A stretch of DNA of 33,138 nt from an uncultured Haloferula sp. (lineage in GTDB: Bacteria > Verrucomicrobiota > Verrucomicrobiia > Verrucomicrobiales > Akkermansiaceae): contig CBFGTS010000025.1 of the NCBI GenBank assembly GCA_965652295.1, forward strand, positions 1-33,138, read 5' to 3'. The notes under the pieces were generated by a model. That model did not search any database. It was not told the DNA's origin and saw only the letters and a list, made by a program, of their open reading frames with translations. Position 1 is the stretch's first letter, and every line of letters starts with the position of its first letter. Below are positions 31,563 to 33,138 of this stretch, in pieces. Both the position numbers and the translations under genes were made by a program.

Positions 31563-31590
31563 TTGCGCGGGAAGGTGCGCCCGTTAGGGT
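31563..31590 (+). promoter_or_regulatory. Possible sigma70-type promoter for small lipoprotein 1
   Basis: TTGCGC-N16-TAGGGT followed by an A/C-rich leader. Confidence 0.35.
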
Positions 31591-31665
31591 GGTGGTATCC
31601 TGAGCAGATGCGCCCAGGTTGCAAAACCGCAGTCAAAACAAACTCAGAAACCACCATCCCGAATT

Positions 31666-31785
31666 ATGAAAATTGCTAAAATCGTCCTCCTCGCCGCTGC
31701 CGCCACAGGCACCTTCCTCGCCGCTTCCTGCTGCGAAAGCGCTCCTGCTCCGGCGGCTCCGACCTACGTCGCGCCGTCCAAGTGA
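31666..31785 (+). CDS. Micro-lipoprotein 1, 39 aa: MKIAKIVLLAAAATGTFLAASCCESAPAPAAPTYVAPSK
   Basis: Manually translated; absent from the ORF track. Basic n-region, hydrophobic h-region, AAS-C lipobox, downstream hairpins. Confidence 0.75.
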   Translation: MKIAKIVLLAAAATGTFLAASCCESAPAPAAPTYVAPSK

Positions 31786-31792
31786 TTTCCCA

Positions 31793-31816
31793 TTCCGCCG
31801 GGATCACCCGGCGGAA
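31793..31816. other. Stem-loop directly after micro-lipoprotein 1
   Basis: TTCCGCCGGG-ATCA-CCCGGCGGAA, 10-bp perfect stem. Confidence 0.6.
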
Positions 31817-31827
31817 ATGACTTTGAT

Positions 31828-31863
31828 TCGGGGCGGACTGCTTGACAGTCCGCCCCGATTTTT
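31828..31863 (+). terminator. Rho-independent terminator containing a TTGACA hexamer
   Basis: 13-bp perfect stem TCGGGGCGGACTG / CAGTCCGCCCCGA, loop CTTGA, then T5. Confidence 0.75.
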
Positions 31864-31896
31864 GGAGAGCAAGACCAGCCAAACTTGAAAAATCCA

Positions 31897-32049
31897 ATGA
31901 TGTTCCGAATCTTCGCCGCCCTTGTCGCTTCCGTTTTCGCGTTCCTGAGCGTTTCGTGCTGCTGCACCAGCGAGCCGACCGCCGCGTCGCTTCGCCCGCT
32001 CCCGGCCTTCCAGGAGATGCCGGCGGCCGAGGTGGATTACTCCAAGTAA
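31897..32049 (+). CDS. Micro-lipoprotein 2, 50 aa: MMFRIFAALVASVFAFLSVSCCCTSEPTAASLRPLPAFQEMPAAEVDYSK
   Basis: Manually translated; absent from the ORF track. A-rich leader, signal peptide with SVS-C lipobox, own terminator. Confidence 0.72.
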   Translation: MMFRIFAALVASVFAFLSVSCCCTSEPTAASLRPLPAFQEMPAAEVDYSK

Positions 32050-32067
32050 TCTTCCCTCGAAAACCTG

Positions 32068-32091
32068 CCGGTGGCGCTGTCACCGGTTTTT
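32068..32091 (+). terminator. Rho-independent terminator after micro-lipoprotein 2
   Basis: CCGGTGGC-GCT-GTCACCGG followed by T5. Confidence 0.65.
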
Positions 32092-32192
32092 CCCCACGCT
32101 CCGCGTCCGCTTCTGCCGGCTCGCGGGGCTTGCTTTGTACGCGCGGCGGGTTTCCGTCTTGATTTCGAGTCGCGAGACGAAAGGTTCATCGC

Positions 32193-33138
32193 GTGGGTTG
32201 GCAGATGCTCGGTGACTCGGCGTGGCTCTATCGTGTGGGCGATGGCGATGCCGGGCTTTGCCTGCGTGGAGCCTTGGACCTCGCCTCGCGGCTGCGGCAG
32301 GCGGGGATCGAGGGCGTGATCGACGTCATCAACGGCTACAATACCGTGGCGGTGCATACGGACCCCGCCGTGTTGGACGAGGTCGGGGAAGTTCTCCGTG
32401 GATTGACGGTGGGGCCGACGGGAGAGGAGTTCACAGGCCGGCAGGTGGAAATCCCGGTCTTGTATGGCGGCCCGGATCTGAAAGAAGCCGCCCGTCGCCT
32501 CGGGATGGAGGTGGAAGAGGTGATCCGGCTTCATACGGGTGCGGAAATGCGGGTGGCCACGCTGGGGTTCGCGCCCGGGTTTCCCTATCTGGCCGGCCTG
32601 CCGGAAGCCTTGCATCTGCCGCGAAAGGCGACCCCGGAGCGGGTCGGGGCCGGAGCGGTCGCGATCGCCGGTGCCCAAGGCGGGATCTATCCGTGTGAGT
32701 CGCCCGCAGGCTGGTGGGTGCTCGGCAAGACGACCGCGACACTTTTCGATCCGGGGAAACATCCGCCCTCCATCCTGATGCCGGGCGACCGGGTGCGCTT
32801 CGTGCAGGTCGATGTCCTCAAGGCCCCGCGCGAGGCTGCGGGCGTGGATTTCACGGAGGGCCCGGTCGAGGTCATCGAGCCAGGAGCCATCACGACGGTG
32901 CAGGACGGCGGCCGTCCCGGCTATCGCGACGCGGGGGTCTCGCCCGGCGGTGCCGCCGATCCGGTGGCGCTGGCGGTGGCCAACACGATGCTGGGCAATG
33001 TTCCGGAAGCGCCTGCGTTGGAAGTCTGCCTGACAGGGCCGCTTCTGAGGTTTCGCGAGCCGTGCCGGGTAGCATGGGTCGGCTGGAAGGGAGGAGGACG
33101 GAGCGCCGACTTCGGGGCGGGCGAAACGCTCGATCTAC
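32193..33138 (+). CDS. pxpB: Fused 5-oxoprolinase PxpB-PxpC (allophanate hydrolase subunits 1+2); runs off the window end
   Basis: Manually translated: LGDSA, VEIPVLYGGPDL, LGFAPGFPYL, GIYPCESPAGW, PGDRVRF, then in frame TTVQDGGRPG, GVSPGGAAD, ANTMLGN, LEVCLTGP. Start GTG 32193 or ATG 32205. Confidence 0.88.
   Translation, partial: MGWQMLGDSAWLYRVGDGDAGLCLRGALDLASRLRQAGIEGVIDVINGYNTVAVHTDPAVLDEVGEVLRGLTVGPTGEEFTGRQVEIPVLYGGPDLKEAARRLGMEVEEVIRLHTGAEMRVATLGFAPGFPYLAGLPEALHLPRKATPERVGAGAVAIAGAQGGIYPCESPAGWWVLGKTTATLFDPGKHPPSILMPGDRVRFVQVDVLKAPREAAGVDFTEGPVEVIEPGAITTVQDGGRPGYRDAGVSPGGAADPVALAVANTMLGNVPEAPALEVCLTGPLLRFREPCRVAWVGWKGGGRSADFGAGETLDL

Follow-up and report, generated by a model that had tools for sequence, protein, structure and literature searches.

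Two short open reading frames in a contig of an uncultured Haloferula sp. belong to a family of predicted micro-lipoproteins of the class Verrucomicrobiia in which only two residues are general, the lipobox Cys and a C-terminal Lys. The family is unnamed, has no Pfam or NCBIfam match, and is a member of neither the Lpp nor the OmcA family. We give a probability of about 0.68 to the reading that these peptides are disordered, Lpp-like covalent tethers, with an exported L,D-transpeptidase fixing the Lys to mDAP. That the micro-lipoproteins are expressed, lipidated and located as this reading requires, and that an mDAP–Lys bond is formed, is what we infer from the sequences considered here.

Within the window (the whole stretch of DNA that was analysed, 33,138 nucleotides), the two ORFs sit between a gene for a Gfo/Idh/MocA oxidoreductase and a PxpB/PxpC gene (Table 1). 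The latter carries the 5-oxoprolinase PxpB and PxpC domains in a single frame (32193–33138, + strand) and runs off the contig end. At the contig start lies a transposase-like ORF (34–948, − strand), which we take to be IS481-like. The genes that flank the ORF1–ORF2 pair differ from genome to genome, and the pair is therefore an independent unit. Most relatives of ORF2 use a start corresponding to its second ATG (31900), which would yield 49 aa. The putative promoter was recognized by eye and was not called by a consensus promoter scan of the locus; in upstream regions read in the same way, the pattern TTGCRC-16 nt-TAG(A/G)GT occurs at six of nine loci in the genus. No Shine-Dalgarno sequence was seen in the ORF1 leader. 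An initial sequence-only reading of this DNA had described both leaders as A-rich, and indeed the ORF1 and ORF2 leaders, with 42% and 41% A, lie above the 99th percentile of the genome (40%; median 17.5%). The same reading had assigned each gene its own terminator, which is firm for ORF1 only because the hairpin after ORF2 (RNA fold of 32050–32110, −19.1 kcal) escaped the terminator scan.

Table 1. Coordinates of the features discussed; positions without a genome or locus prefix are those of the window.
Feature	Position	Strand	Remarks
Predicted sigma70-type promoter	31563..31590	+	TTGCGC, 16 nt, TAGGGT; by eye, inferred
ORF1 leader, A-rich	31626..31665	+	42% A
ORF1, type I micro-lipoprotein gene	31666..31785	+	39 aa, TGA stop
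GC-rich hairpin 3′ of ORF1	31791..31819	+	RNA fold
Intrinsic terminator-like hairpin and T run, between ORF1 and ORF2	31828..31858	+	terminator scan, RNA fold
ORF2, type II micro-lipoprotein gene	31897..32049	+	50 aa, TAA stop
Hairpin 3′ of ORF2, possible terminator	32059..32092	+	RNA fold; not called by terminator scan
Predicted beta-barrels with an apparent Gly start	G000:C2:354101-355372, C6:96255-97217, C26:11319-12149, C10:40136-40720
CC/CxxC small lipoproteins of f5	L111:630-767, L242:474-671, L247:439-627, L251:1035-1205
Broken L,D-transpeptidase pseudogene L507	G367:C1:445281-445751		orthologue intact in G345

Both ORFs, proposed as genes from the letters alone, are real, conserved in the genus and under purifying selection. 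Counting the genome that carries the window, full-length ORF1 is present in 23 and ORF2 in 24 of the 25 genomes of the genus, the genomes with no match to one or the other being 61% and 76% complete, and the two lie in tandem in all 23 genomes that have ORF1. Median dN/dS is 0.245 for ORF1 (251 of 253 pairs usable) and 0.207 for ORF2 (264 of 276), every usable pair lies below 1, and the variation peaks at third codon positions. A rule-based scan finds in both a basic N-region, a hydrophobic core and a lipobox Cys, the last of which is invariant in the alignments, in agreement with the lipoprotein-type signals noted at the outset. The ORF1 product consists of a 21-aa signal and a predicted 18-aa mature Pro/Ala peptide; that of ORF2 has a predicted 30-aa mature peptide with a conserved C-x(0-3)-CCT and an LRPLPxF core. 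These are the mature lengths obtained before, and Lys is the last residue of each. Structure models of the two products place helix in the signal peptide only and leave the mature part as coil (pTM 0.33 and 0.23). Searches of Pfam and NCBIfam returned no family for either ORF (a single ArsP match, E 0.29, was ignored), and an Atlas look-up of ORF2 gave only unnamed Verrucomicrobiota clusters, at a recognition value of 2084 that is below the reliable level. Where homologues of ORF2 carry names, they are “hypothetical proteins” from Haloferula, Luteolibacter and Rubritalea, a result that assigns the window to the Verrucomicrobiales.

Iterated profile searches combined with reading of the matched regions detect members that end in Lys in 17 families within the class (f1, f3, f4, f5, f7, f8, f10, f15, f17, f19, f22, f23, f89, f100, f101, f103 and f109). 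Our member counts include only sequences read individually, because raw search tallies contain signal-peptide matches to longer lipoproteins. The genes occur in arrays of one to four copies, and two genomes of only 0.9 Mb retain one. Type I, with a mature peptide of 16–27 aa and a Pro/Ala linker, is general across the range of the family; its linker is poly-Gln in the Akkermansia-type genus, 40 of whose 41 genomes gave a match at E ≤ 0.01. Type II, defined by the conserved CCT and the LRPLPxF core, was seen only in the taxonomic family of the window and has mature peptides mostly of 28–41 aa, up to 50. The two lengths originally proposed hold there, as types I and II, and not as a wider rule. 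Searches of the phylum revealed no micro-lipoprotein at the matches opened outside the class (L150, L153, L155-L158, L460, L463, L470 and L474), and the membership of one further out-of-class match, a 59-aa product ending -GQK (L205), is doubtful. No relative was found in the viral contigs searched, nor a longer fused form among 7994 scored candidates, the latter search being a weak one. Nine of ten type I sequences looked up are absent, as exact sequences, from a collection of 15 billion proteins, and a full-text literature search, whose coverage excludes most subscription journals, returned no paper on these micro-lipoproteins.

Several other small lipoproteins were observed near these genes or in the same genomes. 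In f5, the type I gene is followed by a second small lipoprotein gene whose product is rich in CC/CxxC motifs, in some cases with a His-containing tail, and is possibly metal-binding (Table 1). Between type I and type II genes, L068:1657-1746 encodes a predicted lipoprotein whose mature part is a Cys-Gly peptide of 7 residues. A Cys-Cys lipoprotein of 129–144 aa with a shared C-terminal motif is encoded at G000:C5:59500-59889 (− strand) and L219:309-740, and in G186 it lies ~560 bp upstream of the micro-lipoprotein array.

The terminal Lys is itself under selection. With a type II profile from which the tail had been removed, all 120 listed matches (the best 120 of 507) end in Lys, which lies 9–21 residues after the conserved Phe and closes 57 different last hexamers. 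In the type I search, 63 of 65 sequences end in Lys, with a profile that itself included this residue, and within the genus the Lys is present in 23 of 23 ORF1 and 24 of 24 ORF2 sequences. The background, taken from gene calls by a purpose-made codon model rather than a standard caller, is 152 of 3082 genes (4.9%), and 6 of 124 predicted lipoproteins of at least 100 aa, in the genome carrying the window (G000), and 145 of 1152 genes (12.6%) in the Akkermansia genome G107, which encodes a member ending -AKGK. No member examined has Arg at the position of the Lys; family-like peptides that lack a terminal Lys are a type I peptide ending in Met (L114), one ending Lys-Gly (L239) and one ending in Cys (L249). 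Other elements of the shared design first proposed fared less well. The common TCCAAG-stop and Ser-Lys ending is peculiar to this genome, penultimate Ser occurring in 62 of 216 distinct Lys-ending members; Tyr is found within the last 7 residues in only 105 of the 216; and at least two Cys near +1, by a rough parser, characterize 87 of 154 members of the window's own family vs 8 of 61 elsewhere. Across the class, the terminal Lys is general and the poly-Cys start is not.

These features suggest a mechanism in which the precursor would be exported, lipidated at the first Cys and probably sorted to the outer membrane, for which the lack of Asp at +2 in both products would be suitable under the E. 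coli rule. The mature Pro/Ala/Gln-rich chain would be extended as polyproline II, for which we compute a span of ~50–75 Å for 16–24 residues and ~93 Å for 30; this range of ~50–95 Å is comparable to the distance of 85 Å quoted for E. coli (PMC12729407). An exported L,D-transpeptidase would then transfer the carbonyl of mDAP in a tetrapeptide stem to the epsilon-amine of the last Lys. The extra Cys would be a lineage-specific addition, probably for disulfide pairing, and the ElsL-like gene found upstream of many loci would recycle wall fragments in the cytoplasm and take no part in attachment. The Lpp box is described as portable and tolerant (PMC12274547). An Lpp-like tether had been suggested from the first, and an invariant Lys at variable spacing, ten exported YkuD proteins and a matching muropeptide mass from Akkermansia now argue for it, with the covalent bond as the predicted element.

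The muropeptide comes from Akkermansia muciniphila DSM22959, whose sacculi were boiled in SDS and treated with trypsin and mutanolysin; the published Table S9 has 34 rows (PMC10829024). The sole Lys-bearing row of that table, (NAG)(NAM)-Aem+G+K at 1053.471, amounts to 0.26%, is based on MS1 only and carries the footnote “could be AemGK or AemKG”; its authors interpret the Gly+Lys species as a non-canonical D-amino acid (PMC10829024). The mass that we compute for tripeptide+Gly+Lys agrees with 1053.471. An A. muciniphila record (L188) encodes a member ending -QAKGK, the tail being read there and the muropeptides being those of DSM22959; given this tail and the use of trypsin, the predicted remnant is Gly-Lys on the stem. 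In the same supplement, AemAK is not listed for A. muciniphila although AemA (~18%) is far more abundant than AemG (1.2%), AemGK is absent from the other tables, and AemK of E. coli, expected from Lpp, amounts to 0.12% (PMC10829024). Of the 1152 genes called in the 1.6 of 2.66 Mb of G107 that were covered, 20 have GK as their last two residues, and KGK or RGK closes the -AKGK member only. Among 23 stop-ended KGK matches read from a scan of the whole genome, which left out six KGK matches as well as RGK endings beyond 1.6 Mb, there is one other clear gene, presumably for a DnaJ-like cytoplasmic protein. A protein with an N-terminal Gly-Lys would give the same mass, and none that is convincing was found in the scanned 60% of G107. 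For the type II paralogue of Akkermansia, with its -KSKK end, the expected remnant would be AemK, which is not among the 34 rows of Table S9. We predict that the tripeptide+Gly+Lys muropeptide is the remnant of the -AKGK micro-lipoprotein. In V. spinosum, a published ion list contains mDAP-mDAP ions and no Lys remnant (PMC12283558), and 3-3 links therefore exist in the order. As a separate observation, a tri-Lys-Arg muropeptide has been described in Rhodobacter sphaeroides (PMC10470522), and a similar small-ORF search could find the protein from which it derives.

The genome carrying the window encodes 11 YkuD proteins, 10 of which bear export signals by our own reading. The 0.9-Mb genome G345 has retained a single YkuD. 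This protein is a lipoprotein, its closest homologue in G000 is C18:35226-35846, and the lipoprotein YkuD clade to which the two belong is the best candidate for the ligase. At E ≤ 1e-30, this clade is found in 58 of 60 genomes of f1, 8 of 8 of f5, 12 of 12 of f15, 13 of 13 of f22 and 12 of 12 of f23, and in none of 34 of f72, 28 of f12, 22 of f11 and 8 of f66, families in which no member was verified; this co-distribution, from a draw of 401 genomes, involves kin that are not independent, follows one clade split and uses a cut-off tied to G345. In f14, the candidate ligase is present in 11 of 14 genomes and a micro-lipoprotein profile match in 0 of 14, and there the enzyme may have another substrate.

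A different YkuD gene is found upstream, at a distance of no more than 400 bp and in the same orientation, at 22 of 60 parsed loci outside the window's own family and at three of four loci with other start codons, for a total of 25 of 64 loci in 8 families (L239, which has no Lys end, was left out, and the profile was seeded from the same loci). Pfam confirmed the domain in all three cases tested, and none was found upstream at the own-family loci examined. Its best NCBIfam match is ElsL NF040925 (102–114 bits, for a cut-off of 270), and its stop-to-stop frames of 158–164 aa in L073, L225, L237, L252 and L255 leave no room for a signal peptide. Like these proteins, ElsL is described as having a single YkuD domain of 105–200 aa with no signal or membrane helix, and as a cytoplasmic recycling carboxypeptidase present in all verrucomicrobial orders (PMC8649774). 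We rejected the upstream YkuD as the ligase on these grounds; because it is signal-less and ElsL-like, synteny names no ligase, and what the gene does appear to do is tie the family to wall metabolism. In G000 itself, the signal-less ElsL-like YkuD domain is fused to a SerB-like HAD phosphatase (G000:C18:80135-81262, − strand; L120).

It is worth considering that the Lys might act without being covalently bound. The peptides could be abundant outer-membrane stabilizers, the free Lys binding peptidoglycan carboxylates or a partner protein, in the manner of HP0135 of Helicobacter pylori, a 28-aa mature lipoprotein with a conserved terminal Lys and a function in stabilizing the outer membrane that is reported not to be found on sacculi (PMC11768039). 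We consider this unlikely, although it is the main rival. HP0135 is of the same size class, and the LRPLPxF core of type II resembles a binding motif. Furthermore, the 0.9-Mb genome G367 retains an intact Lys-ending gene despite three in-frame stops in its sole L,D-transpeptidase (Table 1), a case that, as read from the sequence, counts against strict dependence on the candidate ligase. However, H. pylori is described as a species with no Lpp-type ligases (PMC11768039), whereas the genomes here mostly have many exported YkuD proteins; the invariable choice of Lys over Arg suits amine chemistry better than charge; and non-covalent binding would leave the tripeptide+Gly+Lys species, seen only in Akkermansia, unexplained.

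Likewise, the Lys might be a recognition tag with which the peptide regulates or decoys a wall enzyme (an L,D-transpeptidase, a PBP or a tail-specific protease), with little lasting tethering. The recurrence of wall genes as neighbours would fit, both the ElsL-like YkuD at 25 of 64 loci and the PBP or Mur ligase genes that adjoin L070, L078, L154 and L065, but strong expression signals (the A-rich leaders, or AAGAAAGGAGG in other families) and tandem expansion to two to four copies suit a structural role better, and we regard a tag as improbable.

In chlamydial OmcA, likewise a small lipoprotein, adjacent Cys follow the lipobox. A further rival is an OmcA-like, disulfide-cross-linked envelope layer in which Cys rather than Lys would be the functional residue, and the CC or CCC at +1 in the window's genus and the invariant second Cys of type II recall this arrangement. 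The likeness is limited to the window's own family; members have one to three Cys, and 53 of 61 outside that family have one, whereas the Lys is general. Neither ORF nor any protein of G000 matches Chlam_OMP3 (PF03503). The idea fails because poly-Cys is not general in the family, and we judge it very improbable. Still harder to credit is that the Lys merely reflects an AAG-TAA ending preferred by highly expressed genes: the last codon is AAG in 194 and AAA in 33 of 227 genes, all three stops occur with TAA in 213, and TAA-ending genes are richer in terminal Lys, but in G000 the share that ends in Lys is no more than 46 of 375 among genes with a TAA stop and 3 of 44 among small basic proteins, against 120 of the best 120 matches above, and other short lipoproteins at the same loci have other ends.

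The tether that we favour resembles Lpp (ligated by LdtA/B/C) and OprI of Pseudomonas aeruginosa (by LdtPae2) in combining a small, predicted outer-membrane lipoprotein and its invariant C-terminal Lys with exported YkuD proteins, and the predicted bond is that described for both (PMC12729407, PMC10434034). Unlike them, the mature part has no helix or heptad, comprises 16–41 aa instead of 58, has a Pro/Ala/Gln linker and belongs to a different phylum. The LPP domain (PF04728) has no match in G000 or in either ORF, in a search whose control exceeded the cut-off in 1 of 14 genomes, and Lpp is reported only from a gammaproteobacterial subclade (bioRxiv 2021.05.31.446380). The nearest printed idea concerns a Methylacidiphilum fumariolicum lipoprotein, WP_009060351, a highly expressed protein of 139 aa that was found in the peptidoglycan fraction and proposed as a tether (PMC10260701). 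It looks unrelated but is verrucomicrobial and has a conserved Cys and a C-terminal Tyr and Lys, although, comparing by published description only, its 53-aa conserved C-terminal domain exceeds nearly all mature members of our family (PMC10260701). A search for longer proteins gave one match, a mis-started member, which is weak evidence on the relation of the two. Coxiella LimB and Dickeya OutB are also non-Lpp proteins bound to mDAP through Lys; by their descriptions, LimB uses an internal Lys, and OutB, which carries an Lpp box, resides in the inner membrane (PMC12729407, PMC12274547).

Other means of attachment exist beside the tether proposed here, since G000 has four OmpA-domain genes. 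In addition, four predicted beta-barrels of this genome seem to open the chain that follows the signal with Gly and a short linker rich in Pro or Thr (Table 1); reminiscent of the N-terminal Gly tethers of Coxiella, these form a possible second tether system. In G000, we found no support for the possibility that the N-termini of beta-barrels share the Lys motif.

Covalent tethering through Lys has been described almost only in Gammaproteobacteria, and this family bears on how the outer membrane is attached in PVC bacteria. The analysis supplies a family of genes, the exact mass of a muropeptide and a candidate for the ligase. A broader proposal, which we hold at even odds, is that a Braun-type tether of 16–40 residues, disordered and independently evolved, is present in a large part of the Verrucomicrobiia including Akkermansia and has largely been missed by gene callers; that a dedicated clade of lipoprotein L,D-transpeptidases welds it to mDAP; that the periplasmic spacing is set by how long the linker is and how many paralogues there are; and that the Gly-Lys muropeptide already measured in A. 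muciniphila is its unrecognized remnant. If the tether is real, a floppy peptide of 16–25 residues can stand in for the coiled coil of Lpp, and a probably abundant lipoprotein of A. muciniphila has escaped annotation, which may in turn bear on the vesicles of this organism and on the sensing of its lipoproteins by the host.
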